Sequence record: MH560358
DNA from: Escherichia virus KFS-EC
Reading direction: 5' to 3' (one strand)
Length of the DNA stretch: 64,000 nucleotides
Shown here piece after piece: positions 3,257 through 59,043 of this stretch; position 1 is the first letter of the stretch, and the number at the start of each line of letters is the position of its first letter. The position numbers were made by a program, and so were the translations under genes. The notes under the pieces were generated by a model. The model was not told where the DNA came from. It saw nothing but the letters and a program-made list of their open reading frames with translations, and made no database searches.

Positions 3257-3301
3257 TTTTGATTCTCCGTTTAAGAAAGTGTGTTTCGTTTTGATGTGTG
3301 T

Positions 3302-3330
3302 AGTATAGGGGATACGTGATCCCCTGTCAA
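3302..3330 (-). promoter_or_regulatory. sigma70-like promoter TTGACA-N17-TATACT with palindromic spacer GGGGATCACGTATCCCC
   Basis: Minus-strand motif upstream of gene 2945-3256. Confidence 0.5.
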
Positions 3331-10073: not shown

Positions 10074-11243
10074 TTACCAATCAATCTTATCAGCCGGAAT
10101 CAGTTTCTTATAATTCCGTAGATAGTAAGTTTTCATTGAATCCAGAATACGGTCATAATCAAGACCATCAAATGCAATCATCAGACACATGAAAATATAT
10201 GCTTGTGCATCACCATGTTTACGTGATTCGATAGTCGCATTTGATGCATATGTCTTTCTGTCTTCTCCCGCGTGTGCGTTATAAAATTCTGTTGCTGTCG
10301 TGAAGGCATTGCGAAGAATAGACCTGAATGCTTCCTCGAATAGCTCGATTCTTTCCAGTGCTTCCGGTTCGCCTTCATATGCAGCACGCAAATCATCGGT
10401 TTCGCTTTCTACGACATAGTAGATCAGGTTATTAGGAAACATCGATGTGTTTTTAATGTTATGCACACCAATATACCATTCACTCTTCACTTTGAACAGT
10501 TGACCGTCTTTAGTGCGTGCAACAATTCCTTCGATACCTTCTGCGGTCCGAACTTCGTCAAGAATATTGCTAAAACGCGCTGAATCAACCTGTAACGCAT
10601 TTACCAGATGAGGACGTAGGATTGCGTCAGCAAATAGCATTTGATGCGGTACGTACTCTCCTGTGACGTTATGACGTACATTCAGAAGTGTTAGCGACGG
10701 TTCAGAATATTCTACAACAATTCGGTTGCTGGGCGCTGTATATTCAAAGTTGAAAGTATAATCAGACCCAATATCAGCAATCTTAGCGCGTAGATCCGCA
10801 TACTTCTCTGAATACAGAAGACCGTTTGCTCTCTCTGCCTGGCTTGAGTACAAGGCCGCTTTAGACTTCAACTGAACATAGCCGTTATCAATGTAGGTGC
10901 TTACTAGACTACCGTCCATTTTGTCCATGACCATTTCCACATCTTCCGGCTTAAAGCGAGCGCGATCATTCTCGCCTAAATTAAAAAACTTCTCCATAGG
11001 ACGAGATGCAATGCGGACTGGTCGGTCTTTATCGTCAATTTCAAACATGATCCCGCGACACTCTAACGCATCTGGTTTATTCCACATTTCAGGTTTGCTC
11101 AAGTACAGATAGCTAAAAATGCGCATACGGGTTTGCATCGCCGTAATTTCATCTTTGTAATAGAACGTATCAGATCCGTCACATAGTGCCATCAGATTTT
11201 TGAACAATGCTAAAACTTTTTTGTTGTTTTCTTTTGTTGACAT
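10074..11243 (-). CDS. rnlA: RNA ligase 1
   Basis: Nucleotidyltransferase motif KMDGSLVSTY (KxDG); 389 aa. Confidence 0.8.
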   Translation of the reverse strand: MSTKENNKKVLALFKNLMALCDGSDTFYYKDEITAMQTRMRIFSYLYLSKPEMWNKPDALECRGIMFEIDDKDRPVRIASRPMEKFFNLGENDRARFKPEDVEMVMDKMDGSLVSTYIDNGYVQLKSKAALYSSQAERANGLLYSEKYADLRAKIADIGSDYTFNFEYTAPSNRIVVEYSEPSLTLLNVRHNVTGEYVPHQMLFADAILRPHLVNALQVDSARFSNILDEVRTAEGIEGIVARTKDGQLFKVKSEWYIGVHNIKNTSMFPNNLIYYVVESETDDLRAAYEGEPEALERIELFEEAFRSILRNAFTTATEFYNAHAGEDRKTYASNATIESRKHGDAQAYIFMCLMIAFDGLDYDRILDSMKTYYLRNYKKLIPADKIDW

Positions 11244-11640
11244 AATTTGTGTTCCATTCTGGTTTAAATTTGGTGATCAAAACAGGTTCTTCGATATCGG
11301 CAGTGCTTATAATATCCTTACCTGTTGGATTTTCTATGCACAACTCAAAGCACTGGCGGTAATAGAATGTTACTATCTTCCCTTCCTCTAGCGCCTTATG
11401 AATATTCTTACTCTTGCGAGTATCTGCCGTTGGTGTTTGTCTGTTAATGCTCGTCCGGTAATAATTGATCCGCTTTCTGAGATTGATAGTCTGACCAATG
11501 TATACCAGTTCATCATCAACCGCAATAGCATAAAGAACATTTAAACGGTTTTTCTGAGGAGGTAGAATCACATCACCATCTTTACACTCTAAACATGAAT
11601 ATTTAACGAATCCATAGTTTTCTATTAGCTCATTAATCAT
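11179..11640 (-). CDS. GIY-YIG-like small endonuclease domain protein
   Basis: VLYAIAVDDELVYIGQTINLRKRINYY matches the GIY...YIG...R pattern; 153 aa; 3' end overlaps rnlA start. Confidence 0.45.
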   Translation of the reverse strand: MINELIENYGFVKYSCLECKDGDVILPPQKNRLNVLYAIAVDDELVYIGQTINLRKRINYYRTSINRQTPTADTRKSKNIHKALEEGKIVTFYYRQCFELCIENPTGKDIISTADIEEPVLITKFKPEWNTNYVNKRKQQKSFSIVQKSDGTM

Positions 11641-12309: not shown

Positions 12310-12347
12310 TTGATTCTCCTTAAAGTGTATTTCGTTTCGATGGGGGT

Positions 12348-12376
12348 ATATTACTACCCCCGTTTCATGCTGTCAA
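12348..12376 (-). promoter_or_regulatory. sigma70-like promoter TTGACA-N17-TAATAT; hairpin GGGGGTAGTAATATACCCCC (12342-12361)
   Basis: Minus-strand motif upstream of gene 12160-12309. Confidence 0.5.
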
Positions 12377-12595: not shown

Positions 12596-12628
12596 TTTGA
12601 TTCTCCTTTGTTTCGTTTCGATGGGGGT

Positions 12629-12658
12629 ATATTACTACCCCCGTTATTCAGTGTCAAC
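12629..12658 (-). promoter_or_regulatory. sigma70-like promoter TTGACA-N18-TAATAT; hairpin GGGGGTAGTAATATACCCCC (12623-12642)
   Basis: Minus-strand motif upstream of gene 12377-12595; hairpin identical to 12342-12361. Confidence 0.5.
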
Positions 12659-15141: not shown

Positions 15142-15172
15142 AATAAAATCCTCACTTGTTTTTGATGGTTGT

Positions 15173-15201
15173 ATTATAGCGGGGATTTCTCCCCGCGTCA
15201 A
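15173..15201 (-). promoter_or_regulatory. sigma70-like promoter TTGACG-N17-TATAAT with palindromic spacer CGGGGAGAAATCCCCG
   Basis: Just downstream of nrdA stop on minus strand, upstream of the small-gene trio and nrdB. Confidence 0.55.
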
Positions 15202-15209
15202 CACTTATT

Positions 15210-17453
15210 TTACAGCTTGCAAGATGAGCACTCGCTAGCGTCTTCCGTACCATCTGCACCGTCGCGAACGTTCGCATAATACAGGGTTTTCAGACCGTAA
15301 TATTGAGCAAACAGCATATCATCTAACACATCAGCAATATCGACTTTACCAGTCTTATAAGTGCTTGGATCGTAGGATGTATTGGAACTAATCGCCTGAT
15401 CTACAAACTTCTGCATGATCGCTGCCAGTGTCAGATAAGGCTTGTTACCTTTCTTGATCAGTGTCCAAAGCAGGTCAATAACATCAGCATTATTCTCTAC
15501 GTTCGGAATAACCTGATTAAATTGCCCTTCTTTCGATCCTTTAACCGATACAATCCCGCGAGGCGGTTCAATACCGTTTGTGCTGTTAGATACCTGAGAA
15601 GACGACTCACAAGGCATCAGCGCCGAAAGCGTACTGTTACGAATGCCATATTTTTTCAGGTCTTCGCGCAGTTCTTCCCAATCCATCTCATACACCGGAT
15701 CAACCAGTTCATCTACTGTCTTTTTGTACCAGTCGATAGGCAGTTCACCGCGACCATAGCGTGTTTCGTGCATCAGTTCGCAAGCACCCTTCTCTTTAGC
15801 CAGTCGCACACTAGCCTTAATCAGAGCATATTGCAAGCGTTCAAACGTTTTATGCGTAAACTCGTTAGCGTCTTCATATGTGAAGAAATTATCTGCTAGA
15901 TATGATGCAAAGTTAGTAACACCAATACCCAGAGAGCGACGTTTTTTGGCTGTCAGAGCTTGTTCTACAGGATAATCCTGATAATCTAACAGGTTGTCAA
16001 GTGCACGCACCATAACCATAGCAATGCGTTCTACTTCTTCCATATTTTCGATATCAAAGTTTCCTAAAACATATGCTGCCAAAGTGCATAGGCTGATCTC
16101 TGAATCATCACGACCCATCGGTTTTGTTGGCAGAGCAATTTCACAACACAGGTTAGATTGTTTAATCGGTGCTACATTACGAATAAACGCCCCGTGATTG
16201 TTCATGTTGTCTGTGAACGTTGGGTAGATTCGACCAGTGTTAAAACGTTCAATTGCCACCGCTAAAAACAGGTCTTCGGCTTTAACACGAGTTTTACGAA
16301 CACTCGGATCTTTTTCCAGTTTTTCGTAAAGCTGGCGGAAACCTTCCTCATCTCGGAAGTATAGATCCCACAACAAGCCACCCGCAACATCTGGACTAAA
16401 CAGAGTAATGTAATCCCGTTTAAGGAATCGCTCTACCATCAGGTTATTAATCTGTACGCCGTAATCAAGATGACGAATGCGGTTATCTTCCACCCCCTTA
16501 TTGTTCTTTAACACAATCAGACTTTCAAACTCTAAATGCCACATTGGGTAATAGAGTGTCGCTGCCCCGCCACGAATACCGCCTTGTGAGCATGACTTAA
16601 CGGCAGTCTGAAAATGTTTCCAGAATGGGATAACGCCAGTATGACGAACTTCACCATGCCCGATCTTAGATCCTTCCGCGCGAATCATACCAGCATTGAT
16701 ACCGATGCCAGCACGCTTGCTAATATACTTGATGATTGCATTTGCTGTTTCGTTGATGCCCTGCAATGAGTCATCACTTTCAATCACCACACACGAACTA
16801 AATTGGCGTGTTGGGGTACGCACACCTGCCATAATCGGAGTAGGCAGAGAGATTTGCTTATTCGCAACAGCATTATAAAAATCAATCACATGTTCAAGTC
16901 GATTTTCTGTCTCTTCTTGATGCAAGCACATACCGATCAGCATATACGCAAATTGCGGTGTTTCAATGATTTTCTTAGTGCTGCGATCCTGAACAAGATA
17001 TTTCTCTTTTAACTGCATCGCACCAGCATAGGTCATTTTAAAATCAAGTTTATGGTCGATGAATTTCTCCAGATATTCCACTTCTTCACGGGAATATTTT
17101 TGCAGAATTTCGCGATCATATTTTCCGGTTGCAATATTACGCTCAATATGGCTATAAAAATCAATAGGTTGGAATTGACCGTATACTGATTTACGAAGCG
17201 CGAACATTGCAAGGTTACTTGCTACATATTGATAATCAGGTGTTTCTACAGTAATGTTATCTGCGGCGACCTTAATCAATACTTTCTGGATATCATTGGT
17301 AGACATACCTTCTGTCAGAAGTGGTTCAACCATATCAAACAATTCATATGGATCAACGTTATGACCTTCGGCTGCCGCTTCCAGAATTTTCATTACTTTT
17401 TCTTTTTCAAACGGAACAGTCAGACCGGAAGACTTAACAACATTTTTAATCAT
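15210..17453 (-). CDS. nrdA: ribonucleotide reductase large subunit (class Ia)
   Basis: 747 aa; active-site NLCCEI; C-terminal CSSC tail. Confidence 0.95.
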   Translation of the reverse strand: MIKNVVKSSGLTVPFEKEKVMKILEAAAEGHNVDPYELFDMVEPLLTEGMSTNDIQKVLIKVAADNITVETPDYQYVASNLAMFALRKSVYGQFQPIDFYSHIERNIATGKYDREILQKYSREEVEYLEKFIDHKLDFKMTYAGAMQLKEKYLVQDRSTKKIIETPQFAYMLIGMCLHQEETENRLEHVIDFYNAVANKQISLPTPIMAGVRTPTRQFSSCVVIESDDSLQGINETANAIIKYISKRAGIGINAGMIRAEGSKIGHGEVRHTGVIPFWKHFQTAVKSCSQGGIRGGAATLYYPMWHLEFESLIVLKNNKGVEDNRIRHLDYGVQINNLMVERFLKRDYITLFSPDVAGGLLWDLYFRDEEGFRQLYEKLEKDPSVRKTRVKAEDLFLAVAIERFNTGRIYPTFTDNMNNHGAFIRNVAPIKQSNLCCEIALPTKPMGRDDSEISLCTLAAYVLGNFDIENMEEVERIAMVMVRALDNLLDYQDYPVEQALTAKKRRSLGIGVTNFASYLADNFFTYEDANEFTHKTFERLQYALIKASVRLAKEKGACELMHETRYGRGELPIDWYKKTVDELVDPVYEMDWEELREDLKKYGIRNSTLSALMPCESSSQVSNSTNGIEPPRGIVSVKGSKEGQFNQVIPNVENNADVIDLLWTLIKKGNKPYLTLAAIMQKFVDQAISSNTSYDPSTYKTGKVDIADVLDDMLFAQYYGLKTLYYANVRDGADGTEDASECSSCKL

Positions 17454-17525
17454 ATTACCTCACTTCATATTTTAGCAGGAACAAGTTTATCCTCCATATT
17501 GGGGGGCTTTCGCCCCCCCTTTTGT

Positions 17526-18761
17526 TTATACTGCCATTTGAGCGGTGATTGCTGGATGGCTTTGATAGTTGTGAATTTTAAAATCTTTCGGAGTCTTTGT
17601 CAATACCTCATCTAAAGATTTAAATTCCGGCAACTCAATTGTTGGTTTATCAAACGGAACACGGCTTAACTGTTCCATAACTTGATCAAAATGGTTTTTG
17701 TAAATGTGGCAATCCCCACACTGATAAACCAGTTCGCCAACTTCTAACCCGCAAATCTTCGCGATGATATGCGTTAACAGTGCATAGCTCGCTACGTTGA
17801 ACGGATTCCCTAAAAAGAGATCATTCGAACGCATGAAAAATAAACAACTCAATTTGTTGTCGTTGGAAACATAAAACTGTACCATCGGATGACATACACC
17901 TAACACAGCATTATGCGTTTCCTGTACGTTCCATGAATCAATGATAATACGACGACTATACGGATCATTCTTGATCATGTCAATAACTTTTTGTAACTGG
18001 TCTTCCCAAATCTTCGGGCGATAGACATATTCTTCATCGTCTTTAGTGCTTGATGTGTCTACGTCCATACTAACAAACATCGTGGTATCTGGTGCTAAAA
18101 TATCCCCGCCCAGATAATCACTATCAAGCAGATAACCGAAATAACCATCATCTACCCATTCCTGGAATCCCCACAAGCAATATGCATCATTAACAAAATT
18201 AGATTGAGTCTTCCAGTGGTCTGCTACTAAGAATAGATTATATTCAGAATCAAACTCTTCATAACGCATACCACGCCAGATAGCACATAAACGGTCTTCT
18301 GTGTCATTGGTTGGCGTAAAGTCTTCTACCCACGGGTGCTTAAATGTATGTGTATATTTGCTCTTAACGCGCTTAATTTTGATTTCACCATGTGGATGAA
18401 TCGGTTTGCGTCGCCACGCCATACCATACATATTGCCGACATTATAACCATTGAATCGCAAAGGATTCTTTTCTTTCATATCAAGACAGTTACCGCGCCA
18501 AATGTCGAAGGCTTCTTCGTCAAACTGACCGCGTGTAATTTCCTGTAAGCGACGGCGGTCAAGTGATCCCTCCATAAACCATAGCAACTCGCCAATTATA
18601 GAGGCTGTAGCCATCTTTTTAGTGGTCAGTAATGGGAAACCCTTGCTTAAATCGATTCGCATCTCCGCGCCGAATTTAGAGAGCGTACCTACCCCCGTGC
18701 GGTCTTCACGAGGACAGCCATTATCAAGAACATCACGCAATAGTTTCAAATATTCTTTCAT
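17526..18761 (-). CDS. td: thymidylate synthase family enzyme with ~115-aa internal insertion
   Basis: DRTGVGT, SRRIIIDSWN, VCH, DLFLGNPFNVASY, HIYKNH motifs; 411 aa versus about 265-290 typical. Confidence 0.8.
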   Translation of the reverse strand: MKEYLKLLRDVLDNGCPREDRTGVGTLSKFGAEMRIDLSKGFPLLTTKKMATASIIGELLWFMEGSLDRRRLQEITRGQFDEEAFDIWRGNCLDMKEKNPLRFNGYNVGNMYGMAWRRKPIHPHGEIKIKRVKSKYTHTFKHPWVEDFTPTNDTEDRLCAIWRGMRYEEFDSEYNLFLVADHWKTQSNFVNDAYCLWGFQEWVDDGYFGYLLDSDYLGGDILAPDTTMFVSMDVDTSSTKDDEEYVYRPKIWEDQLQKVIDMIKNDPYSRRIIIDSWNVQETHNAVLGVCHPMVQFYVSNDNKLSCLFFMRSNDLFLGNPFNVASYALLTHIIAKICGLEVGELVYQCGDCHIYKNHFDQVMEQLSRVPFDKPTIELPEFKSLDEVLTKTPKDFKIHNYQSHPAITAQMAV

Positions 18762-31803: not shown

Positions 31804-34566
31804 ATGGCAGATTTAAACAGAATCCAGTTTAAACGCACTAGCGCAGCCGGACGTAAACCGGATGCTGGTACGATGAATCCGGGAGAGTTGGCAATTAACT
31901 TAGCAGACCAATATCTGCTTACAAAAAATGATGGTGGGCAAATTGTTAATTTAAGCTGCCCTCCAGTTTATGACAAGAGCGTTAATGTAAAAGGTCGTGT
32001 GGTTGCAGATGACCTTATGTGGAGTAATACCGCAAACTATTTCGATGACCCGACCGCACGAAATCTTGATAAATTTGGGGCATTTCGTACTAATGATATG
32101 GATGGTCATCTAGCACTTGCTTTGCATATTCCCCATCCTAGCGGTATAAATCATGCTCGTGGGTTTGATTTTACTTATGGTTCTAACGTTGTTCCTACTG
32201 TAAAAACCTATGGTTATAACGCTGATGGTGTATTGGCATATTCATATCGCATGTATCACGAAGGTGATAAGCCTAGTCCGTCAGAATTAAATGTATACAG
32301 CAAACAAGAAGTAGACCGGATGTTCCAGAAGACCATCAACTTTGGTGTAGAAACTGGATGGTTTAAAATTGCTACCGCCTTTATTCCGCAAAATGATGGA
32401 CGTAGCTTGAAAATTAGATTGATTGGTGGAAGTGGGTGGAACGTAGGACAAACTGGACAATGTAATATTATTGAACTTGTTATAAGGACTAGCAACGGTT
32501 CGCCTAAAGGAATTAACTTTGTTGCGTATCATCATGTTTCTGGTTACGAAAATCAATTTTGTGCCATTAATACAGGTGATGACACTTATGATATCTATGC
32601 ATATTACTTCGAATTTACTAATATGGTAATGGCTGAATATCAAGCGTCCAGCGGTGTTAATTTAACTGTACTTGATCGACCTGAATATGTCGGCGAAAAA
32701 CCTGTAGCTGATCATATCTATGATGCATATACAATATACTCCTTTAACAGTTTCAGTAACCGTGGAACGTTAAATTTTGCTGGAAACCCTCAAGGCCAAT
32801 ATGACATTGAGCATTTGAACGTGCAACAAACTAACAGCAAAAAGATGTTGCGTCGCTTCCGTAGTTCTGGTCCTGCCACTATCTGGCATGAGACAGTTGA
32901 TGATAACCAGTATCGTCTTGCTACTGGATACGAAGATACAAATCAGGAATTATTGCTGACAGCAACATCCGGGTTACATGTCAAGAAATTAACATTGGAT
33001 GGCGGTGTCACTGGAAATTCTGGTATTGATATTCGTCGAGGACCAAACGAATCAAGCCATTTTAATTTCATGGATTATCGCACTGGACAAGATGTTCGTA
33101 ATGGTTGGTTTGGTTTTGGTGATGGAACAACCAAAGATTTTATTTGGTGGAACGATAACGGTCAAAACTCTATAAACCTGATTGAAGACGGTGAATTACA
33201 TATTACTGGCGGTAGAGGCCAGAAAATTGTAATGAATAGCGAAGTTGCATTATCTGAAAATGCTCGTTTGGCTGTTAAAGGTGGCAATTATGGCTTAATT
33301 TTTAGAAATGATGGCGTTGGCTTCCATATTCTTACCACAGATCTCGGTGATTCATTTGGACCGTGGAATACTCGTAGACCATTCAGCTATGATTTTGCGG
33401 ACGGTGGATTGTATTTAGGTGGTACTGCAACCGCTCGTTGTTTGCATCTGGGAATTGATGGTAGCACTCGTCTCGAAGACAACCTTTTCTTTAAAGCTGG
33501 TTCTCGTCAATCTATGGACTATATGGAACTAGTCCATTGGGGGGCAAGCAATACAGGTCGAAATAACGTTTTAAGTCTTCGTGACTCAAAAGGATTTTTC
33601 GCAGAATTTGAACGATTGGGTGATGATACCATTAAAAACACCTTCTTCGGGAAACTTAAAGTTAATCGTGGTTCTGACGCAATCGTCATGAATGCCGAAA
33701 CGGGTGATTCGTCTATATATTTGCTGGGTACTTGTGCTGATAATAACAACTGGTATATCGGTAAAGGTGGTGCTGATAATGGATTAGCGTTCTATAGCTA
33801 TGCTACTAATGCTGCTATCAATATTACAAACGCTGGTGATATCGCGCTAAGTCCAAAAGGTGTCGAAATGACTCATGTCAATAACGTTCGATTCTATGTT
33901 CATGGTGAACGTTGGACTGCTAGCCAATCTGGAGGCTGGGGCGATCAATGGGGATTAGAAGCGCCGATATTTGTCGATCATGGTTATGTTGGACCAGATA
34001 GCTATTATCCAATTATTAAAGGAAGAAGTTTAATCACCAATCAAGGGTATACAACTGCCGTCGATTTTGGTCTTCGTCGTGTTCCTCAAAATTGGGGGCA
34101 AGCTATTATTCGTGTTGGATCTGCGGATGCATCGCCAGCGGCTGGTCATCCTCAAGCTGTATTCGAGTTCCATCATGATGGTACTTTCTATTCTCCTGGT
34201 AATGGTAACTTTAACGATGTTTATATTCGTTCCGATGGTCGTCTGAAAATTAATGTTGAAGATTACGAAGAAAATGCGGTGGATAAGGTAAATAAACTCA
34301 AAGTTAAAACCTACGATAAAGTTAAATCTCTTAATGACCGAGAAGTTATAGGTCATGAGATTGGTATTATCGCACAGGATTTACAAGAGGTATTACCGGA
34401 AGCTGTTAAAACCGCAAAAATTGGTGGTCTTGATAACCCAGAAGAAATTTTAACAATTTCAAACTCCGCAGTGAACGCGCTTTTAATTAAAGCGGTCCAA
34501 GAAATGAGCGAAGAAAATAAACTTCTTCGTGAACGTCTTGCTGCAATTGAAGCTAAATTAGGGTAA
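31804..34566 (+). CDS. 37: long tail fibre distal subunit with C-terminal chaperone-like domain
   Basis: MADLNRIQFKRTSAAGRKPDAG...GELAINL N-terminus; 920 aa; C-terminal SDGRLKINVE...GIIAQDLQEVLPEAV...coiled-coil tail. Confidence 0.85.
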   Translation: MADLNRIQFKRTSAAGRKPDAGTMNPGELAINLADQYLLTKNDGGQIVNLSCPPVYDKSVNVKGRVVADDLMWSNTANYFDDPTARNLDKFGAFRTNDMDGHLALALHIPHPSGINHARGFDFTYGSNVVPTVKTYGYNADGVLAYSYRMYHEGDKPSPSELNVYSKQEVDRMFQKTINFGVETGWFKIATAFIPQNDGRSLKIRLIGGSGWNVGQTGQCNIIELVIRTSNGSPKGINFVAYHHVSGYENQFCAINTGDDTYDIYAYYFEFTNMVMAEYQASSGVNLTVLDRPEYVGEKPVADHIYDAYTIYSFNSFSNRGTLNFAGNPQGQYDIEHLNVQQTNSKKMLRRFRSSGPATIWHETVDDNQYRLATGYEDTNQELLLTATSGLHVKKLTLDGGVTGNSGIDIRRGPNESSHFNFMDYRTGQDVRNGWFGFGDGTTKDFIWWNDNGQNSINLIEDGELHITGGRGQKIVMNSEVALSENARLAVKGGNYGLIFRNDGVGFHILTTDLGDSFGPWNTRRPFSYDFADGGLYLGGTATARCLHLGIDGSTRLEDNLFFKAGSRQSMDYMELVHWGASNTGRNNVLSLRDSKGFFAEFERLGDDTIKNTFFGKLKVNRGSDAIVMNAETGDSSIYLLGTCADNNNWYIGKGGADNGLAFYSYATNAAINITNAGDIALSPKGVEMTHVNNVRFYVHGERWTASQSGGWGDQWGLEAPIFVDHGYVGPDSYYPIIKGRSLITNQGYTTAVDFGLRRVPQNWGQAIIRVGSADASPAAGHPQAVFEFHHDGTFYSPGNGNFNDVYIRSDGRLKINVEDYEENAVDKVNKLKVKTYDKVKSLNDREVIGHEIGIIAQDLQEVLPEAVKTAKIGGLDNPEEILTISNSAVNALLIKAVQEMSEENKLLRERLAAIEAKLG

Positions 34567-34604
34567 TTGGAAAGCGGGGAGAAATCTCCGCTAAGGATTC
34601 TTAT

Positions 34605-34928
34605 ATGGGATATTGGGTAAGTAGTGAAATTAATACTAAAATCGATGCTTTAAAATGGCATGTATTTGATATTCCTAACGGCTATGGTACTGCTCGTGCT
34701 GGTGTCGCTGTAATGCGTCATAATGCTGGTGGTGGGTGGTCTGATGCACATATTAACGTAGATGGTTTGACCGTTGCTCGTCGTCGTGGTGGGACCAATT
34801 GGGGATCTACTATAAATTCGTTTGTTCCTGCTGGCTGCACCGTCTCCTTTGGTTTAGGGGGTGAAGGTGGTGACTCAGAATTGCTTTTGCATGGCTTTTG
34901 TGTGTCTGGAAGTCATAAGGGGTCATGA
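34605..34928 (+). CDS. hypothetical glycine-rich protein downstream of gene 37
   Basis: 107 aa; GGGW, GGEGGD glycine-rich stretches; SD AAGGA upstream. Confidence 0.4.
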   Translation: MGYWVSSEINTKIDALKWHVFDIPNGYGTARAGVAVMRHNAGGGWSDAHINVDGLTVARRRGGTNWGSTINSFVPAGCTVSFGLGGEGGDSELLLHGFCVSGSHKGS

Positions 34929-35087
34929 TTGGGGACAGATCCATTCTTGTATTGTGCCGCAGGGAGTAACGATCACGGTAACTACAAACAGGGGTATTTC
35001 CCATCTTCGTTATAGACGCTTGAGCAACCGTTAAAAAAAGAATTAAGGAAAACTCCCAGGGAAGGGAACTACTAAGGAGAAACGGCT

Positions 35088-35306
35088 ATGGTCTATAATA
35101 TCGTCATTGGTGCTTTGTCTAATTTCGGAATGAAACTATTGTCAAAGTTAATTAGTGAAAAGATGCTCACTAAAATTTTCTTCTATTGCGCTCGTCGTCT
35201 TGCGGCTTATACCAATACGCCAATTGATGATCGTTTTGTGGAAGAACTTTATAAGGAGTTTAATAAAGATCAGTCAGAAGATAGCAACGAGCAAAATAAA
35301 AAATAG
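35088..35306 (+). CDS. hypothetical small protein (72 aa)
   Basis: ORF track; SD AAGGAGAAA upstream. Confidence 0.35.
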   Translation: MVYNIVIGALSNFGMKLLSKLISEKMLTKIFFYCARRLAAYTNTPIDDRFVEELYKEFNKDQSEDSNEQNKK

Positions 35307-35361: not shown

Positions 35362-36018
35362 ATGCAAGTTTCTGAAAAAGGGAAAGACTTTTCTATCTCA
35401 AATGTCCTGCGCGCTATTTTCACAACTAAAAGCACGGAGTTGCTCGTACTTCGTGTTTTTGCTGCCGTCGTGTTGTCCATATTAGCATTTGTCGTTTATA
35501 GTAAAAACGAGTTATTTGCGCTTTATAAAGAGACTCGTTATGAGACTTATGCTCACGTTCTCCAGGTAGAGAAAGACCGCAATTTTGATAATGCAGCACA
35601 GGAGCAGTTACAGATAGTTCATGTGTCGGCTGATGCCGATTTTTCTGCTGTTTTTAGTTTTCGTCCGAAAAACCTAAACTATTTTGTTGATTTGGTGGCA
35701 TATGAAGGAAAGTTACCGCATACAATCGATGAAAAAAATTTAGGCGGATTCCCTATCAATAAAACGAGTGAAGAATATCGTAGGCATCTTTTAGGTAAAT
35801 CCTATTTTACCGATAAAGATTTCCAGTATATTCCATCAAGAGAAAAGAAATTAGAGAGTATCGATATAGGGGTTATGTATTCTTGTCCTATATTCAATCT
35901 CGACAATGTCTATTCTGGTAGTATCTCCATTGCATGGAAGAATAAACCGGATATTGACATTGAGAATTTAGATACTCTTTGCAATCAATCTGCCAGAATC
36001 CTCGGAAGGATTAGATAA
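35362..36018 (+). CDS. t: holin (T4 t family)
   Basis: 218 aa; single N-terminal TM (VLRVFAAVVLSILAFVVY) then large periplasmic domain; position after tail-fibre genes. Confidence 0.85.
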   Translation: MQVSEKGKDFSISNVLRAIFTTKSTELLVLRVFAAVVLSILAFVVYSKNELFALYKETRYETYAHVLQVEKDRNFDNAAQEQLQIVHVSADADFSAVFSFRPKNLNYFVDLVAYEGKLPHTIDEKNLGGFPINKTSEEYRRHLLGKSYFTDKDFQYIPSREKKLESIDIGVMYSCPIFNLDNVYSGSISIAWKNKPDIDIENLDTLCNQSARILGRIR

Positions 36019-36022
36019 CTTA

Positions 36023-36056
36023 AAGGGGAAGCCTTTCGGCCTCCCCTTCTTTTTAT
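36023..36056. terminator. bidirectional terminator between convergent holin gene and minus-strand gene
   Basis: GGGGAAGCC-TTTC-GGCCTCCCC hairpin flanked by A-run and T-run. Confidence 0.5.
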
Positions 36057-36301
36057 TGGCGCATAGAAGCCCCTGAATCACATTTTGACGCTGTATGATG
36101 AAAACAGGTAGCGTACCAGTCATCGGCTTGTTTGTCTTCGTCAGAAAACGCGTAATTGCGTTGTATGCCGTTTTCTACTTTGACCAGTGCAATAGCTGTT
36201 TCTGGAAGATCAATCAATCGGACAAAATCACCATCTTCCCACTCTACACGAGCAATATCATAGCCCATCTCAAAGTATACAATCGCTTGTTCTAATTTCA
36301 T
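36053..36301 (-). CDS. hypothetical protein (82 aa)
   Basis: ORF track. Confidence 0.4.
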   Translation of the reverse strand: MKLEQAIVYFEMGYDIARVEWEDGDFVRLIDLPETAIALVKVENGIQRNYAFSDEDKQADDWYATCFHHTASKCDSGASMRQ

Positions 36302-38015: not shown

Positions 38016-38297
38016 TTATTTTCGGTTGTACTTCTGCCACTTTCGGTAATACTGCTTGTAAAATTGTTTTGCGTTTTCACCATCTTTACTATACATGTTA
38101 TCTACCATCAAGTCAATAAGACCTCCCGGTGTCTGGTAGTTCCCCGCTCGGATAAGTTCTTTAATTAAATTGTCCTGATGATCTTTGTATACTACGTTAA
38201 TGATGGTCTTTTCTGCTTTCTTCGTCCCGATCATCCGGTGATTAGCTTTCATCGCATCCCACCAATCTTTTGTGATCTTCATGTTATTGAATTGCAT
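38016..38297 (-). CDS. hypothetical basic protein (93 aa)
   Basis: ORF track. Confidence 0.4.
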   Translation of the reverse strand: MQFNNMKITKDWWDAMKANHRMIGTKKAEKTIINVVYKDHQDNLIKELIRAGNYQTPGGLIDLMVDNMYSKDGENAKQFYKQYYRKWQKYNRK

Positions 38298-38308
38298 AAT
38301 TTAACCTC

Positions 38309-39067
38309 TTACTTGCAAACGTATTGATCTACATCAATTGCGCCACCGAATGTAGGATGACGTTTTTCGAATCGAATAGTTCCGTCGTTTGGTTCGAAAA
38401 CGGAGTATTCATATAGATCTTTCTTGCCAACATTCTTATAAAACCCGCCTTTAGTCATAACGGTTTCTTGTACGTTTGCTTTGTGTACGTTGTATTCATC
38501 AATGTATACAAAATCAACCATCTTCCCATTTTTAATTGTTACTTTAAGATCTCCTGGTTGGTTTCCATATTTTGCATACAGTGGGGCTTCTTTAATTTTG
38601 GTGGAAATTCCATCTTTCATACTCCACTCATAACGAACGGTGCATTGATAGGTAAAAGTTTCGACCTTCGGTTCTTCTACAACTTTTGCTTCCTGTTTCG
38701 GTTGTTCTTCGTCAACCTTCGCAGAAGTCTCTGAATCGCTTTCCGACGCAGTTTCTTCTTTAGGTAATACATTCATCAAGTTTTGAATTTGAGCGTTATA
38801 TACAGCCTCCAGTGGCTGAATCTGCCCGATATTGATCATTGTATCACGAACAGTTTTATTCCAGTTGCGTTGCTCTTGTTTAAGCGACAGATCAATCTTA
38901 ACAGCCTTAACATATACTTCATGAAGTTTAGAATCCAGTGCGGAGATTGACTCATTGGCACAAATAAACTTCTCTGATTTGGTAGTGGCTTTAGCGCAAT
39001 CAAAGGACGCAGCATTAGCACCGAAAGCAGTAGCAGAAAGAACGATAGCAGCGATAATGTTTTTCAT
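38309..39067 (-). CDS. secreted protein with DUF1311/LprI-like (lysozyme-inhibitor-type) N-terminal domain
   Basis: Signal peptide MKNIIAAIVLSATAFGANA-AS; then FDCAKATTKSEKFICANESISALDSKLHEVY...EQRNW pattern; own promoter. Confidence 0.55.
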   Translation of the reverse strand: MKNIIAAIVLSATAFGANAASFDCAKATTKSEKFICANESISALDSKLHEVYVKAVKIDLSLKQEQRNWNKTVRDTMINIGQIQPLEAVYNAQIQNLMNVLPKEETASESDSETSAKVDEEQPKQEAKVVEEPKVETFTYQCTVRYEWSMKDGISTKIKEAPLYAKYGNQPGDLKVTIKNGKMVDFVYIDEYNVHKANVQETVMTKGGFYKNVGKKDLYEYSVFEPNDGTIRFEKRHPTFGGAIDVDQYVCK

Positions 39068-39101
39068 AATATATTCCTCAATGTTTTGTCTTGATGGGAG
39101 T

Positions 39102-39130
39102 ATCTTACTACTCCCTTAATCCGGTGTCAA
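39102..39130 (-). promoter_or_regulatory. sigma70-like promoter TTGACA-N17-TAAGAT; hairpin GGGAGTAGTAAGATACTCCC (39096-39115)
   Basis: Upstream of gene 38309-39067; hairpin identical to 1522-1541 and 12117-12136. Confidence 0.5.
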
Positions 39131-39293: not shown

Positions 39294-39324
39294 TTTGATT
39301 CTCCTTCGTTGTCTTGATGGGTTT

Positions 39325-39353
39325 AGTATAGGGGATCGCCGATCCCCTGTCAA
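39325..39353 (-). promoter_or_regulatory. sigma70-like promoter TTGACA-N17-TATACT with palindromic spacer GGGGATCGGCGATCCCC
   Basis: Upstream of gene 39138-39293. Confidence 0.5.
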
Positions 39354-40582: not shown

Positions 40583-40784
40583 ACTTTCCCTCCAAAAATT
40601 CTTTCATCAAATAGTCTATCGTTGCTCTGTGTTCTGGTGTGTTTGTTATCTCTGCTAACTTATTCAGAGATTCAATAGTGATCCGGTTGGCTTCTTCCAT
40701 AGTCTCAACGACCATTGGCACAATCTTTTTATTGTTGTACACAAATGCAATATAACCGCCTTCTGGATATTCTTTCATAATCAA
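40575..40784 (-). CDS. hypothetical small protein (69 aa)
   Basis: ORF track; overlaps neighbours. Confidence 0.35.
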   Translation of the reverse strand: MIMKEYPEGGYIAFVYNNKKIVPMVVETMEEANRITIESLNKLAEITNTPEHRATIDYLMKEFLEGKYD

Positions 40785-42142
40785 CCCTTCTTAAGTTCTT
40801 TAAGATCTTTCTTATATTCCTTCATTGCGGTCGTCTTTGTCCAATACTCATATTCACTATGATGTTTATCGGCATCTTTGACCAGTCGATCATACTCTTC
40901 TTGAGTAACGCTATATAATGGCATAGAAACTAGCTTATCGGCGTATGGACGCAGTTTTTCATGTCCATTTATGGATTGCATTACCTCGGCCTTTTTCTTG
41001 CCCTGTAGCTCGATTTCGCCCTTAATTACGCGATCGATAAATTCGGCTTTAGCCATTGCATAATTGTATGCTTCCAGCGTTTCCGCTTGCATCAATTCAA
41101 TGCGTTTATCGACATACCCTAATCGGATTTCGACGAATCGACGGATCAGATCGCTCGCTTTCTCGAATACTTCTACTAAACCACGTTCGTTAACTACTAC
41201 GATATTCTGGGCTACTAACTGCGTTAGTTTAAAATCCTTCATGATTTGCTCATGTCGAGCGGATTCATCTTCGCTTTTGAAATAATCGCGTTTCAGTGTT
41301 ACTTCAAATCTGAATCCGTCCTTAGAGCAACGGTCATTATACGATACAATCAGATCTTTTTCTTCCAGTGCATCCAGTACCGCTACATATTCTTCACGGT
41401 CGAACTTATAAGGAACTTCTGATATTGTCAGTTTAGTCTTGCCGTTTAGTTCATATGTACCCTCAAGAATCACACCATCGCGATCATCTCGCGGGATAAC
41501 TTTACCTGTGAATTTCGGGAATTGAACACTAGGTTCTTTATCCAGTTTTCCGGCAAGTGCTAGCTCTGTGCATTCAATAAGGCTTTCCAGTGAATGCGGT
41601 AAAATGTCAGTTTTATACCCTGTAGCAATACCACTAATACCATTAGCCAATACCATTGGCACAACTGGCAAGTAGAAAGCTGGCGGGATGTGTTCCAGAT
41701 CTTCGTGCTTAGGTGCGCAATTCATATCTTTATAGATTTTAAAGAAGTTTTCATGCACACGAGCAAAGATATAACGTGCCGCACCTGCTTTCTGGACTAA
41801 ACGCGATCCGAAGTTACCTTGACCGTCAAGCAGTGGAGTATTATTGCTCCATGTATTCGCCATGAGTGATCCGGCTTCTACGGCATTAGTTTCCCCGTGG
41901 TGATAACCCAACTCAGCAACACCAGATCCAATATCTGCCATCTTACGGAATTTCTTACGGTCGCCTTTACTCTTTTGCAAAGCACATTCCATAACAAAGC
42001 GTTGCACTGGTTTAAGTCCGTCTACCAATTGAGGAATCCCGCGTTCCTCGGCAGAATAGATCGCATATTCCTTAGCTTCATTATGTACAATGCTTTCAAG
42101 GCTGCGGTAAGTAACTGATTTATTCATCTTCACCTCATACAC
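40781..42142 (-). CDS. 52: DNA topoisomerase II medium subunit (GyrA-like cleavage-religation)
   Basis: 453 aa; LKPVQRF and GYHHGE motifs. Confidence 0.85.
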   Translation of the reverse strand: MYEVKMNKSVTYRSLESIVHNEAKEYAIYSAEERGIPQLVDGLKPVQRFVMECALQKSKGDRKKFRKMADIGSGVAELGYHHGETNAVEAGSLMANTWSNNTPLLDGQGNFGSRLVQKAGAARYIFARVHENFFKIYKDMNCAPKHEDLEHIPPAFYLPVVPMVLANGISGIATGYKTDILPHSLESLIECTELALAGKLDKEPSVQFPKFTGKVIPRDDRDGVILEGTYELNGKTKLTISEVPYKFDREEYVAVLDALEEKDLIVSYNDRCSKDGFRFEVTLKRDYFKSEDESARHEQIMKDFKLTQLVAQNIVVVNERGLVEVFEKASDLIRRFVEIRLGYVDKRIELMQAETLEAYNYAMAKAEFIDRVIKGEIELQGKKKAEVMQSINGHEKLRPYADKLVSMPLYSVTQEEYDRLVKDADKHHSEYEYWTKTTAMKEYKKDLKELKKG

Positions 42143-54974: not shown

Positions 54975-56003
54975 TTAAAATTTACAATATTTCATAAACC
55001 GCATTTTAGCCATCAGACCTTGTACGGTGTTCTCTTTGATATATTCCATGATCTGGTCGCGTGTAGCGCCCTCGTCCTGAATCATGGCGTTAACGTCTTT
55101 AGAATGCCACGGGCAACGGTCCCACAATACAATCTTTTCCCCTGCATTGATAAACTTTTCCAGTCGGTGCATTGTATCGGCAGACCGTGGTTCCGCATCA
55201 AGTACAAACACTCGCTGGTCTGGGAAAGGGATTTCATCTAATCCCAAAGTACCGCCAGTAATTGCACACCCGTTATCAATAAACAATGAATCGATCGGAC
55301 CTTCTAAGAAATACACTGGTTTACTCGGATCGGCGCGTTCAAGACCATAGACCTTACTCGCTAACTCGTGAGTTTTAATCGTCATATATTTGGTCTTTCC
55401 GTAATCCTTTCTCAATGCTCGCCCCTGAATGGATTCTATCTTGTTCTCGCGGTTAAAGATAGGAATCACTAAACGTGGTTCAGGTTGTGGATTCTTGAAA
55501 GTATCAGCCTTAATGTGATTTGCTACCTTTTGCCATTCTCTCGTGAAATACAGAAGATCCCATTTATCGTGAGGGATGCAACGATCACTGACATACTTTA
55601 TTATAGGATGATTAGCCGGAAGAGTATCTAATCTCTCGCAGAAAGGCAATGTTTGCACTTTCTTAATCTCCGACTTTTCTACCTTTTTCAGTGGCTTGAA
55701 CGTGGTGTTCTTGTGGTCGCCTTGTTCCTTCCGTCGTTCCATAAGCCATTCCCTGAATAGGTCCGGCTTATACTGTTTGAGAAATTCACCTAACGGCTGA
55801 TTGTAGTTACAGTTGAAACAGCCGCAACGCAAACTATCCTTATAGGTATAGATACGGAATCGCGCTTGAGTATGATTTTTCTTTGAGTCACCGCAGATCG
55901 GACAACTACAGACCAGCGTAAATGAGCTAGTATGCAACCGTTTAAAATTTCGTTCGCCGTATATGGCTTTTTCCGCTATTTCATAATCTGCGTAGTAAAT
56001 CAT
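54975..56003 (-). CDS. 61: DNA primase
   Basis: Zinc ribbon CPICGDSKKN...CFNC plus TOPRIM region; 342 aa. Confidence 0.9.
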   Translation of the reverse strand: MIYYADYEIAEKAIYGERNFKRLHTSSFTLVCSCPICGDSKKNHTQARFRIYTYKDSLRCGCFNCNYNQPLGEFLKQYKPDLFREWLMERRKEQGDHKNTTFKPLKKVEKSEIKKVQTLPFCERLDTLPANHPIIKYVSDRCIPHDKWDLLYFTREWQKVANHIKADTFKNPQPEPRLVIPIFNRENKIESIQGRALRKDYGKTKYMTIKTHELASKVYGLERADPSKPVYFLEGPIDSLFIDNGCAITGGTLGLDEIPFPDQRVFVLDAEPRSADTMHRLEKFINAGEKIVLWDRCPWHSKDVNAMIQDEGATRDQIMEYIKENTVQGLMAKMRFMKYCKF

Positions 56004-56012
56004 AATAACCTC

Positions 56013-56216
56013 TTATAGCTCAAATTTCATGAAAGTTCCTACACTTTCATTTTCATTCTCTCCGTTTTCATCTAAGCCAAATTTGTAGACACTACCATCT
56101 GGCGATGTGTAAGAGAATACACGAAAACGGCCTACCGAATCAAGTTCTGTAAATTCATATTCTTTTCCGGCTTCAAAAAGTGCATATGTGCTTTTAAGAC
56201 ATTTCATCGTAATCAT
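56013..56216 (-). CDS. hypothetical small protein (67 aa)
   Basis: ORF track. Confidence 0.35.
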   Translation of the reverse strand: MITMKCLKSTYALFEAGKEYEFTELDSVGRFRVFSYTSPDGSVYKFGLDENGENENESVGTFMKFEL

Positions 56217-56536
56217 TTAAGCGCCACCGACAACAGAATGAGAACTACACCAACATACATTGTGATCTCGGATAACTTTTCTGTTTTTGTTTTGTGTCCA
56301 GATAATCCGAAAACAACAACACCGATAATAGCGGACAGCAAGCCAACGATAAACATGATGATACTAAGCACCGTCTTTCTCCTTTTTGCGTTTTTCTTTA
56401 CCCGCTACACTAGGTCCACGATTGGTAATAGATCCGCTCGTTTCACCTGCTGCGATCTTCTCAGGATTGCCGCCAGCATCGCCAGTGGTCATATCTTCTT
56501 TGAGTTTATTTTCTTCAACAAACTGTTTAAATCCAA

Positions 56537-56914
56537 TCATAGAATAATCTCTTTCAGTAAGTCAACAATCTGGTCTTTCGTCAGTTTATCCTGATTCTCT
56601 ACAATCTTGATAACACAAGCATTAACATCTTTTCGAGTCACGCGGGAGATCGTTTTAATACGATGAAACGGTTCGTAGAAATATACTGCTTCATTATAGA
56701 GCGCAGCAATTTTTCGACGCATTTGATCTTTATCTGACAAGAAAACAAGTGCTGTTTTATGACCTTCTACACCCGCCACGTTATATAGTTCAGCAACACC
56801 CCAGCGACCTTCCGGTTCAATCATTCCGGCGTGTTTACCGTCGATAAAAATAAGAATATCTCCGTTGAATGCGGTTTTGAATGCTACATCTTCCGGCGTA
56901 ATCATATTTTTCAT
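56537..56914 (-). CDS. hypothetical protein (125 aa)
   Basis: ORF track. Confidence 0.4.
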   Translation of the reverse strand: MKNMITPEDVAFKTAFNGDILIFIDGKHAGMIEPEGRWGVAELYNVAGVEGHKTALVFLSDKDQMRRKIAALYNEAVYFYEPFHRIKTISRVTRKDVNACVIKIVENQDKLTKDQIVDLLKEIIL

Positions 56915-56944
56915 AATATAGTCTCCTTAGAGTTTCATTATAGA

Positions 56945-57580
56945 TCAAGCGAATGTAGAAAGCAAATGTTTTGTTTCTTTCAGTTGTCGTTCAAGATCTT
57001 TGCGTTTCTCTTTAAGTTGCATTTTAGCATTATTTCGCTGTTTTTCAACATCTTTATCAATACTCTTATTCCAGTTATCAATATCAGAATAAGTTGGCAT
57101 ACCCAATTCTAGACCTAATGCGGTTGGATACAAGGTAACAGTCCATAAACCGCTAATCTTCTTAAATAGGTCGGGGTGTAGTGTACTATCTACATCTTCC
57201 GGTGTCAACTCTTTTTCTTCTTTCAGTGGTGGGATCTCGTCATATGGTTCCAGTGCATTTACTTTAATGTCAGATACCTCATCAAAGAATCCGCGTACAT
57301 CCGCAGGAAATACACAAGCAATTTCCCAACCGTGATCACGCAGAGAAGTAATATTTTTCACTCCCCCACCATGTGTGATGATTGATGTGACATTGCCATC
57401 AAGGTCCACCGAATTTACGAGAAATGGCTTATCGTCTGTCAGATCATTATAAAACTGTGCTTCGGCTGTAGTCATCTCCAGAAACAGATCTCGGATCGGA
57501 CGACCATCAGGTGCGTTACCTTCCTTGAGAGTATAAAAGCGACTTACGATCCATTTTGGCGGTAAAGCATTAGCGATCAT
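56945..57580 (-). CDS. hypothetical protein (211 aa)
   Basis: ORF track; SD AGGAGA upstream. Confidence 0.45.
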   Translation of the reverse strand: MIANALPPKWIVSRFYTLKEGNAPDGRPIRDLFLEMTTAEAQFYNDLTDDKPFLVNSVDLDGNVTSIITHGGGVKNITSLRDHGWEIACVFPADVRGFFDEVSDIKVNALEPYDEIPPLKEEKELTPEDVDSTLHPDLFKKISGLWTVTLYPTALGLELGMPTYSDIDNWNKSIDKDVEKQRNNAKMQLKEKRKDLERQLKETKHLLSTFA

Positions 57581-57630
57581 GTTATATCTCCTATCAAATC
57601 ATTCACCAGCGCCCCGCAGGGCGCATTTTA

Positions 57631-59043
57631 TTAGAAAGTCATGTTATTTGCTAGCTCGTCGAGTTTTTCTCGTTTCTCGGCTTGCTGTGCGCTTTGTGGT
57701 TTAACCTGTGCATTCTCCTGATCTGCGATCTGGTTTGGGACTTCATACCAACGCTGATTGCCTTTTTTCACACCAACGTTAAACCGTGAATAATAGTTCT
57801 TATCACCGTAACGAGACTTGATCTGCTTCATGAGTTGGACGCCCATTTTAGCCAGGTCTTCGGTTTCGATAACACCCAACATAAAGTCGGCAGTAGCCGG
57901 AAGACCTGCCGATTCAGCGGTATCACTCATGTTAAGGTCGGAAGCATCCCAACCCGCGCGGGTAGTCTGTGCCGCAGTCCAACCAACAACATCCCACTTA
58001 ACAAAAAATCCTCGCAGTTCTTCCGCAATCGCCTTAACTAGTGTGTAACTATTTTCAGAGTATACACGCAAGCGAGACGATGCGCAAATCCCAAGATAGT
58101 CAACAATCACAACATCAGGTTTAAACTGTTTCTTGAGTCGCAATTCATTCATTAACGCCTCAAAGTGATTGGAGTTCGCGCCACCAGTCGGATACTGCTT
58201 GATCATCAATTTTCCAACCGGACGATCTCCGTTCTTCTTATTCTTAACCCGCTTCATACGTGCGGAATATTCCGCAAAAGAAACATTACCATTATCCAAT
58301 TCATCTAATGTAATGTCAAGCAAGTTTGCGTCAATACGTTTGGCTACGACATGCTCTGCCATCTCCATTGAGATATACAATACATCATAACCACATTCCA
58401 TATAATCCGCAGCAAGAGAACACAGTCCAAGCGATTTGCCAACGTTTACACCAGCAAGCAACACATTTAGCGTTTTTCTTTCCGCCCCTCCTTTCGTGAT
58501 TTTATTCAACATCGGCAGCTTAAATGGGATCTTATTCGCCTTAGTCTGATATAACAGGAATCGTTTTTCAAAGTCATTAAACCAGTCATGACCTACATCA
58601 GAATCAAACGTAATGGATAGTGCTTCCTGCATAATTTCAGGAATAGCGCCCTCACTAGGCAATTTCTTATTCTGTTTCTCTTTTGGTAGTTGTGCGTTCG
58701 CCTGAATCTCTAGCGCCCGTGACATTGCATTGTACATAGCACGGTCACGAATAAATTTTTCGGTTTCCTTCATTAACCAATCAAGGTCTTCCGGTGTATT
58801 CTCCAGCGAATCGAGAAGAGTTTTAGCCCCTTCATATGTTGTCTGATTGCCTCTCTCCTTGTCTAAAGCAATCTGTAATGCAGTTGGCGTAGGAATATTG
58901 GAATATTCGTCTACGTGCTTTTTAATCAGCTTATAAATCAGTTTTTCTTCGTCTTCGGTGAAGTAGTCCGCTTTAAGGTGAGGCCATACATTCGTAAAGA
59001 ATGCGCCATTGTAAATCAACTGTGAAAAGATAGTTTTAATCAT
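57631..59043 (-). CDS. 41: replicative DNA helicase (DnaB-like)
   Basis: Walker A GVNVGKS; 470 aa. Confidence 0.95.
   Translation of the reverse strand: MIKTIFSQLIYNGAFFTNVWPHLKADYFTEDEEKLIYKLIKKHVDEYSNIPTPTALQIALDKERGNQTTYEGAKTLLDSLENTPEDLDWLMKETEKFIRDRAMYNAMSRALEIQANAQLPKEKQNKKLPSEGAIPEIMQEALSITFDSDVGHDWFNDFEKRFLLYQTKANKIPFKLPMLNKITKGGAERKTLNVLLAGVNVGKSLGLCSLAADYMECGYDVLYISMEMAEHVVAKRIDANLLDITLDELDNGNVSFAEYSARMKRVKNKKNGDRPVGKLMIKQYPTGGANSNHFEALMNELRLKKQFKPDVVIVDYLGICASSRLRVYSENSYTLVKAIAEELRGFFVKWDVVGWTAAQTTRAGWDASDLNMSDTAESAGLPATADFMLGVIETEDLAKMGVQLMKQIKSRYGDKNYYSRFNVGVKKGNQRWYEVPNQIADQENAQVKPQSAQQAEKREKLDELANNMTF

Follow-up and report, generated by a model that had tools for sequence, protein, structure and literature searches.

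Mycobacterium tuberculosis LprI combines a DUF1311 domain with an MliC domain; MliC is considered sufficient for lysozyme inhibition, and DUF1311 itself has been tied to this activity by no experiment (PMC7933661). Salmonella ScwA, a DUF1311-only soluble periplasmic protein, has no lysozyme phenotype; it is disulfide-stabilised, horizontally acquired and controls the lytic transglycosylase MltD, raising its levels, and its overproduction lyses cells (PMC7933661). In enterohaemorrhagic Escherichia coli, the DUF1311 protein Etsi4 rescues cells from the toxicity of Etse4, a cell-wall effector that acts in the periplasm (PMC12981562), and DUF1311 genes adjoin those of lysozyme-like or transglycosylase effectors of type VI secretion systems (T6SS) in Pantoea, Salmonella and the WHIX class (PMC9796082, PMC8867033, PMC12135965). 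As a generalisation, DUF1311 is most safely described as a periplasmic module linked to peptidoglycan hydrolases, which it often antagonises. Phage T4 encodes Spackle (gp61.3), a periplasmic protein that inhibits the gp5 tail lysozyme, is made early, bears a signal peptide and contains cysteines (PMC7677548). Here, we analysed an open reading frame (ORF) at 38309..39067, on the minus strand of a 64,000-nt stretch of Escherichia virus KFS-EC (MH560358; 'the window', to which positions refer unless stated). An earlier interpretation made from the nucleotide letters (the sequence-only reading) had proposed that this ORF encodes a secreted DUF1311/LprI-like lysozyme inhibitor and could be a non-orthologous analogue of Spackle.

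The ORF encodes a constant DUF1311-type domain behind an export signal and a C-terminal domain that has been precisely exchanged between phages, and related copies are shared with temperate prophages. We tentatively read its product as a modular periplasmic neutraliser of incoming cell-wall hydrolases, a role that we regard as possible rather than probable. The coding sequence has an ATG start and specifies 252 aa plus a stop codon. It is the orthologue of RB49p262 (ORF262; NP_891833, UniProt Q7Y3G7, PHROG 14799), annotated there as 'hypothetical protein', and the 4 kb surrounding it share 94-97% DNA identity with RB49-like coliphages of the genus Krischvirus. The ORF262-type gene was found full-length in 55 phage records and is under purifying selection, which identifies it as a real gene. 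This confirms the gene described in the sequence-only reading, identifies it as an early-type gene of an RB49-like coliphage and places it on the minus strand.

The gene has its own promoter, a further claim that held. TTGACA-17-TAAGAT was located at 39130..39102, directly 5' of the ORF, within a promoter-early stem-loop (PeSL) cassette (39088..39130, minus strand; -35 TTGACA at 39130-39125, -10 TAAGAT at 39107-39102). The stem-loop GGGAGTA/TACTCCC (39115-39096) overlaps the -10 element, and the conserved tail CCATCAAGAC is present. In RB49 and phi1, PeSLs are experimentally strong sigma70 promoters as well as terminators, and also act as recombination sites (Arbiol et al. 2010, PMC2839356). 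The motif TTGACA-N17-TAnnnT-N4-CCATCAAGAC occurred seven times in the window against an expectation of 0.03 (three or fewer mismatches), always on the minus strand (1514-1556, 3288-3330, 12334-12376, 12615-12657, 15159-15201, 39088-39130 and 39311-39353). The copy at 39088-39130 had no mismatches and shares an identical GGGAGTA/TACTCCC stem with the copy at 1514. With sigma70 -35 and -10 elements, a 17-nt spacer, a G/C stem-loop, the 3' tail and a position in a hyperplastic region, the ORF has the features of a PeSL cassette; ORF262 is not mentioned in the portion of the text of PMC2839356 that was searched. A Shine-Dalgarno sequence, GAGGAA, was read at 39074..39079 (minus strand), 6 nt 5' of the ATG.

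Residues 1-19 (39011..39067, minus strand) form a predicted signal peptide, MKNIIAAIVLSATAFGANA, followed by AS. It has a basic n-region, a 13-residue h-region and a c-region with an A-x-A site (ANA|AS), at which signal peptidase I is predicted to cut before ASFDC, and it is devoid of a lipobox. The 'A-x-A|ASFDC' junction did not vary even in Klebsiella, Aeromonas and lambdoid phage homologues with no more than 37-41% identity to the protein, and the signal peptide recognised in the sequence-only reading therefore stands. Cleavage after ANA was read from these sequence features and from the conservation of the junction; a home-made rule set also flagged the ORF as exported but placed the cut after residue 12. 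Residues 1-20 had a predicted local distance difference test (pLDDT) score below 50 in the AlphaFold2 (AF2) model, for which the mean was 70.8. The mature product is predicted to be a soluble periplasmic protein of ~233 residues.

The constant N-domain (residues 20-103; 38759..39010, minus strand) was modelled as four helices (residues 30-100, pLDDT 70-80), carries two cysteines only (C24 and C36) and resembled a solved DUF1311 structure in a fold comparison. The DUF1311 pattern noticed earlier passed the cut-off of the Pfam LprI family (PF07007, formerly DUF1311) at 23.8 bits against 22 (E 6e-5), over positions 1-71 of the 106-position profile. Six further phage homologues scored 23-28 bits and were likewise partial (positions 1-71, up to 78, in all seven). 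A profile search with the N-domain retrieved 53 proteins, mostly PF07007 proteins of 100-180 aa. Because the partial match recurs in homologues and the profile retrieves PF07007 proteins, the N-domain is, on these matches, a genuine, though truncated or divergent, DUF1311 module. The public names agree: UniProt calls the RB49 protein 'LprI-like N-terminal domain-containing', and NCBI and UniProt assign relatives to the LprI family. Codon 60 (38888-38890) specifies Leu60 in the window protein and Pro60 in all 20 other protein clusters, RB49, SFHK24 and kaaroe; this nearly invariant position sits in the loop joining helices 2 and 3. Behind the N-domain lies an acidic linker rich in E, K, P, Q and S (residues 104-134; 38666..38758, minus strand), predicted to be disordered (pLDDT <50 at 104-131), whose length differs between aligned alleles by KVEEKQP-type units.

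The C-domain (residues 135-252; 38312..38665, minus strand; RB49-type allele) is the beta-rich domain foreseen by the sequence-only reading. It was modelled as an eight-stranded beta-barrel lying between C142 and C251, with strands over residues 135-251 at a pLDDT of about 85-90. All C-domain alleles carry two cysteines and no more, placed in the first and the last strand. As these strands are adjacent in a closed eight-stranded barrel, the barrel is probably closed, or stapled, by a C142-C251 disulfide. No PDB structure was matched by Foldseek at E<=1e-3, and the best of the weak matches were the barrels of protein-binding surface lipoproteins (NHBA, TbpB and fHbp). Among viral models, Foldseek matched the RB49 orthologue and a small number of phage proteins that are uncharacterised, some of them annotated as lipoproteins. 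A phmmer search of 1.84 billion representatives with the C-domain retrieved its own family and three repeat-protein artefacts only.

In sequence searches, the C-domain proved to be an orphan. Fifteen C-domain alleles matched no Pfam family, including MliC, which was searched at E<=10, and the C-domain profile retrieved neither MliC/PliC nor any other lysozyme inhibitor from PDB sequences. The MliC/PliC family motifs SxSGAxY and YxxxTKG (PMC6033465) were both absent from the 15 alleles in a regular-expression search. Membership of MliC/PliC (PF09864, COG3895) was rejected, leaving only a generic barrel similarity.

Across 21 protein clusters, residues 1 to ~125 were almost invariant while the C-domain comprised at least nine alleles, which group into two to three classes. 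Type A alleles (RB49, Phi1, one E. coli prophage and others) were 27-41% identical to each other. Type B alleles (JSE and another E. coli prophage) were also predicted to be beta-rich, with lower model confidence. The two types gave an hhalign probability of 2% and could be aligned only over the first ~23 columns (F.Y.C...IDG), and they were rejected as divergent homologues. A third, different class, also bounded by cysteines, was joined to this N-domain and linker in Klebsiella Marfavirus phages, in Aeromonas T4-like and Ludhianavirus phages and in the lambdoid phage ev099. Only three residues (C, G and C) were invariant across all C-domain alleles. This invariance of C, G and C only, together with the unrelatedness of types A and B at the profile level, argues against a shared small-molecule pocket. 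We consider it very unlikely that the barrel is a ligand-binding one, lipocalin- or FABP-like, that sequesters a periplasmic small molecule or lipid, or that it serves another role unrelated to cell-wall hydrolases. Such a function would accord with the fold, which matches lipocalin/FABP barrels, the nucleotide-binding barrel of Cap15 and lipid-binding proteins as well as it matches others; the conserved DUF1311 partner points instead to protein or cell-wall biology.

The exchange of C-domains was precise at the DNA level. The window and JSE were 98% identical down to 38660 (codon 136, at the end of the linker), shared no detectable DNA similarity across the C-domain and were again 98% identical from 38310, in the stop codon. 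The same exact replacement was observed against Phi1, with break-points at 38666 and 38327. In these comparisons the flanks of the swapped C-domains were 95-98% identical. The ratio of non-synonymous to synonymous substitution rates (omega) was 0.00-0.27 for the N-domain and 0.00-0.12 for the C-domain within the RB49-type allele. Purifying selection on the N-domain identifies it as a working module and not merely a recombination arm. As both modules are under purifying selection, diversity arises via cassette exchange and not through rapid point mutation. Allele type is not simply clonal, since phage ELT3 has a gp5 99.4% identical to that of RB49 and yet a Phi1-type C-domain. Precise swapping of individually conserved alleles is the pattern expected for a specificity module facing diverse targets.

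No neighbouring gene co-varied with the C-domain, the flanks being 98% identical to JSE on either side of the swap. The conserved flanks led us to reject a toxin-immunity pair, or a polymorphic toxin with co-varying immunity; without a co-varying neighbour, the protein behaves as an orphan immunity protein or binder rather than as a toxin.

The RB49-type C-domain (96-99.7% identical DNA) was present in 43 phage records, among which the distal tail-fibre (gp37) region was highly mosaic, no record covering 80% of the window version. With one allele in 43 records and a mosaic gp37 tip, the C-domain allele is uncoupled from the receptor-binding tip, and masking of the phage's own receptor was rejected on this basis. 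The gp37 region (33000-35300, plus strand), especially 33748-34521, contains one segment ~81% identical to Tequatrovirus gp37 and ~78% identical to that of T6 itself. The same lack of coupling weighs on a second explanation, which we consider unlikely, whereby the protein confers superinfection exclusion or progeny protection through a host envelope component (the periplasmic face of an outer-membrane receptor or a DNA-entry route), like T5 Llp or T4 Imm, with the barrel selecting the host target. Export, an early-type promoter, moron-type positions in prophages and a variable specificity module would all suit this explanation, as would the weak Foldseek matches to NHBA, TbpB and fHbp barrels. 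However, the protein has neither lipobox nor membrane anchor, and no coupling to the tail-fibre tip was seen over the 43 records.

Copies of the gene were not confined to virulent phages. Among 5,426 complete E. coli genomes, 26 carried it, always on the chromosome, where the copy is the last gene of a prophage and lies beside a truncated hicB. Over their first 372 nt, the prophage copies matched those of Krischvirus with 95-97% identity. The copy in strain 14EC017 resembles the window from 6 nt before the ATG onwards, and the PeSL is therefore missing there. Past the stop codon of the 14EC017 copy, an 80-nt stretch (9776-9855 of the chromosome stretch, corresponding to window 38234-38313) was 87.5% identical to the first ~26 codons of ORF261, the gene downstream in the window, and ends in a premature stop. 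This remnant is a footprint that T4-like surroundings have left in a temperate prophage, and it points to acquisition by the prophage from a Krischvirus-like genome, or from a donor holding both genes. A Krischvirus-like metagenomic contig of 175 kb also carries the prophage-type allele class, at its t-52 locus.

Lambdoid phages carry more distant members of this N-domain subfamily in their recombination (early-left-type) region. One E. coli prophage contig has an N-domain relative beside cIII, kil and recombination genes, and in ev099 the gene lies just upstream of xis/int; further relatives occur in other phage contexts. Such positions are typical of exclusion or fitness morons.

On the reading that we favour, the neutraliser, the gene would be transcribed early from its own PeSL promoter, and its product would take the Sec route and, once cleaved by signal peptidase I, become a soluble periplasmic protein of ~233 residues. 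Its two modules, the constant DUF1311/LprI helical domain and the exchangeable beta-barrel, would be joined by a flexible acidic tether of ~30 residues. The protein would act as a stoichiometric binding or neutralising ('immunity-like') factor against cell-wall hydrolases arriving from outside, the putative targets being the tail-spike lysozymes of superinfecting phages or muramidase and transglycosylase T6SS effectors. The envelope of the infected or lysogenic cell would thereby be protected. The DUF1311 module would supply the conserved activity, and the swappable barrel a second, variable specificity. Speaking for a neutraliser are the export signal and the two cysteine pairs, which are typical of periplasmic proteins, membership of DUF1311, the precedent of single-domain DUF1311 proteins that antagonise periplasmic cell-wall effectors, and the phage-borne nature of the subfamily. 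The lack of Spackle in Krischvirus, and an endolysin that a muramidase inhibitor would leave unaffected (see below), also speak for it. A bolder form, which strikes us as improbable, is a phage-borne polymorphic 'orphan-immunity' system. In such a system, DUF1311 would dock on something conserved in the invading hydrolases or in the wall itself, the disulfide-closed barrel would select the competitor's weapon (tail-spike lysozyme, T6SS muramidase or bacteriocin), and alleles would circulate between virulent T4-like phages and the temperate prophages of the same host.

Several observations weigh against a neutraliser of hydrolases, and most bear also on the step from DUF1311 through lysozyme inhibition to a Spackle analogue. 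The architecture given in the sequence-only reading stood, but the functional step, though not refuted, is weakly argued. The inhibitory activity of LprI is attributed to MliC, ScwA has no lysozyme phenotype and the barrel shows no sign of MliC. The PF07007 match is marginal and falls short of a full-length domain. No effector-like gene adjoined the gene in Krischvirus, Marfavirus or Aeromonas phages, ev099 or E. coli prophages. In addition, gp5 was 96-100% identical in all 58 Krischvirus records, whatever the C-domain allele; if gp5 is the target, its near-invariance means that only the constant N-domain could recognise it, and co-variation of the C-domain with the phage's own gp5 was rejected. 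RB49 also encodes other exported proteins, namely rI, vs, vs.1 (with an SLT transglycosylase domain), RB49p192 and the lipobox protein RB49p182, and the elimination argument (no Spackle, hence this protein) is weak for this reason. Finally, a Spackle-like gene at 41-61 coexists in Marfavirus phages with a DUF1311 fusion of 250 aa.

Four of these exported proteins are encoded on the minus strand in the RB49 stretches in which they were located: vs.1 at 878-1468 and vs at 511-870 of one stretch, RB49p192 at 17423-17899 and RB49p182 at 11007-11492 of another. vs.1 has a signal peptide besides the SLT domain, and the lipobox of RB49p182 reads LTG|C. Any of the four could instead perform a periplasmic function, superinfection exclusion among them, or be the Spackle equivalent. 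The Marfavirus 'spackle periplasmic protein' (Klebsiella phage PWKp18, 1640-1921 of its stretch) resembled T4 Spackle in the first 40 residues only (48% identity), that is, over the signal peptide and the first cysteine; the mature parts could not be aligned.

The absence of Spackle from the window and from RB49 is real. T4 Spackle, whose query sequence was checked against PDB 6x6o, had relatives in 927 phage records. A tblastn search with the T4 and Marfavirus Spackle proteins against the window and RB49 1-122 kb, which together represent a whole genome, gave chance matches only, the best (E 0.02-0.06) lying inside gene 41. A Spackle homologue anywhere in Krischvirus was accordingly rejected. 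Between genes 41 and 61 (56003-57631) there are five small ORFs, and no cleavable signal peptide was seen in any of them, as the sequence-only reading had noted for this position. The only GH24 lysozyme domain found was that of Krischvirus gp5, while the endolysin (RB49p102; 4719-5108, minus strand, of the RB49 stretch with vs.1) is a 129-aa Peptidase_M15_4 protein and not a T4 e-type GH24 lysozyme. A muramidase inhibitor would consequently not hinder the phage's own lysis. This division between gp5 and the endolysin, the precedent of DUF1311 immunity to T6SS cell-wall effectors, the missing Spackle, a signal peptide and an early-type PeSL promoter, which an exclusion function would be expected to have, are what still favour an analogue of Spackle. 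Such an analogue would bind the gp5 GH24 domain of superinfecting Krischvirus or T-even tails and so block penetration and lysis-from-without. With C-domain alleles that do not co-vary with gp5, we consider this unlikely.

The link between ScwA and MltD, and the distance of 2.3 kb between the ORF and holin gene t, raise a further explanation, in which the protein modulates host peptidoglycan enzymes as ScwA does and tunes wall remodelling or lysis timing. This appears quite unlikely. In ScwA, a 275-aa protein of another architecture, the DUF1311 domain lies at the C-terminus; RB49 already possesses rI, t and the rII genes; and hypervariable cassettes are hard to square with conserved host enzymes as targets. 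Replacement of an RI-type antiholin was rejected, since RB49 has rI and the gene also occurs in unrelated temperate phages.

The hyperplastic region around the ORF lies between holin gene t (35362-36018, plus strand) and topoisomerase gene 52 (40781-42142, minus strand), and the neighbours of the ORF there are small ORFs with no assigned function. ORF261 (38016..38297, minus strand), which encodes 93 aa without a signal peptide, starts 11 nt past the stop codon of the ORF262-type ORF and is probably co-transcribed with it. In the same region, an 82-aa ORF beside the holin gene (36053-36301, minus strand; RB49p255 orthologue) had a Pfam match to the Tad2-like (Thoeris anti-defence 2) domain (27.9 bits against a cut-off of 25, E 3e-6) and is a possible anti-Thoeris sponge. 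The PADLOC defence-system library returned nothing relevant and NCBIfam noise only. Elsewhere in the window, a 110-aa ORF with a lipobox-like FALSS|C (9257-9589, minus strand) and the adjoining 107-aa ORF with an N-terminal hydrophobic anchor (9706-10029, minus strand) form a pair that resembles spanins.

Krischvirus phages are used in therapy cocktails and have no Spackle, and this ORF provides a concrete, easily cloned candidate for how they handle superinfection or envelope attack. In layout the protein, a predicted periplasmic accessory, recalls a receptor-binding protein, in that its head stays constant and its tip can be swapped, and alleles about 96% identical in DNA pass between virulent and temperate coliphages. 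Should a cell-wall hydrolase be the target, the protein would link phage superinfection exclusion with T6SS-type immunity and give a first function for a phage DUF1311 module. If it is not, the case would caution against taking the Pfam name 'lysozyme inhibitor LprI' as a function. No paper dealing with an LprI/DUF1311 protein of a phage came up in full-text literature searches, nor did a search on orphan immunity encoded by phages yield any result. The cassette exchange behind a conserved head, and the sharing between virulent and temperate phages with its ORF261 footprint, appear to be undescribed in the literature. Given that the domain annotation is already public and the function putative, we do not consider this a new kind of system.

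Compared with the described systems, the protein shares with M. tuberculosis LprI an export signal and an N-terminal DUF1311-type helical domain followed by a small barrel, modelled here as eight-stranded. However, LprI is a lipoprotein whereas the phage protein has a signal peptidase I site without a lipobox, and the phage barrel has neither an MliC match nor MliC motifs. The 30-aa acidic linker, a barrel that is polymorphic and cassette-swapped, and a DUF1311 match limited to positions 1-71 further separate it from LprI. To the barrel inhibitors of peptidoglycan hydrolases (PliC, MliC, PhiA and ACP) the C-domain has no sequence or profile similarity, it does not share their motifs, and unrelated barrels score equally well or better. 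T6SS DUF1311 immunity proteins, which neutralise cell-wall effectors or are predicted to do so, likewise have a signal peptide and DUF1311 and a predicted periplasmic location. These are single-domain proteins of 110-180 aa encoded beside their effector, in contrast to a phage-borne two-domain fusion with no effector neighbour. ScwA is also a soluble, periplasmic, disulfide-containing DUF1311 protein (location and disulfides being predictions for the phage protein), but the domain order and partner regions differ, and ScwA has no variable cassette and is not phage-borne. Like the PeSL-flanked ORFan cassettes of RB49 and phi1, the ORF belongs to a hyperplastic region and has a canonical PeSL in front of it; what is exchanged here, however, is its 3' half, between one break-point in the linker and another at the stop codon, and not a whole PeSL-bounded ORF. 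With T4 Spackle it has in common a signal peptide, cysteine pairs and an early-type promoter, features that suggest similar timing and a periplasmic location. There is no sequence similarity between the two, the mature proteins have 233 and 75 residues, respectively, and differ in architecture, and the ORF262-type gene lies at the t-52 locus rather than at 41-61 and, in contrast to Spackle, occurs in temperate phages too.

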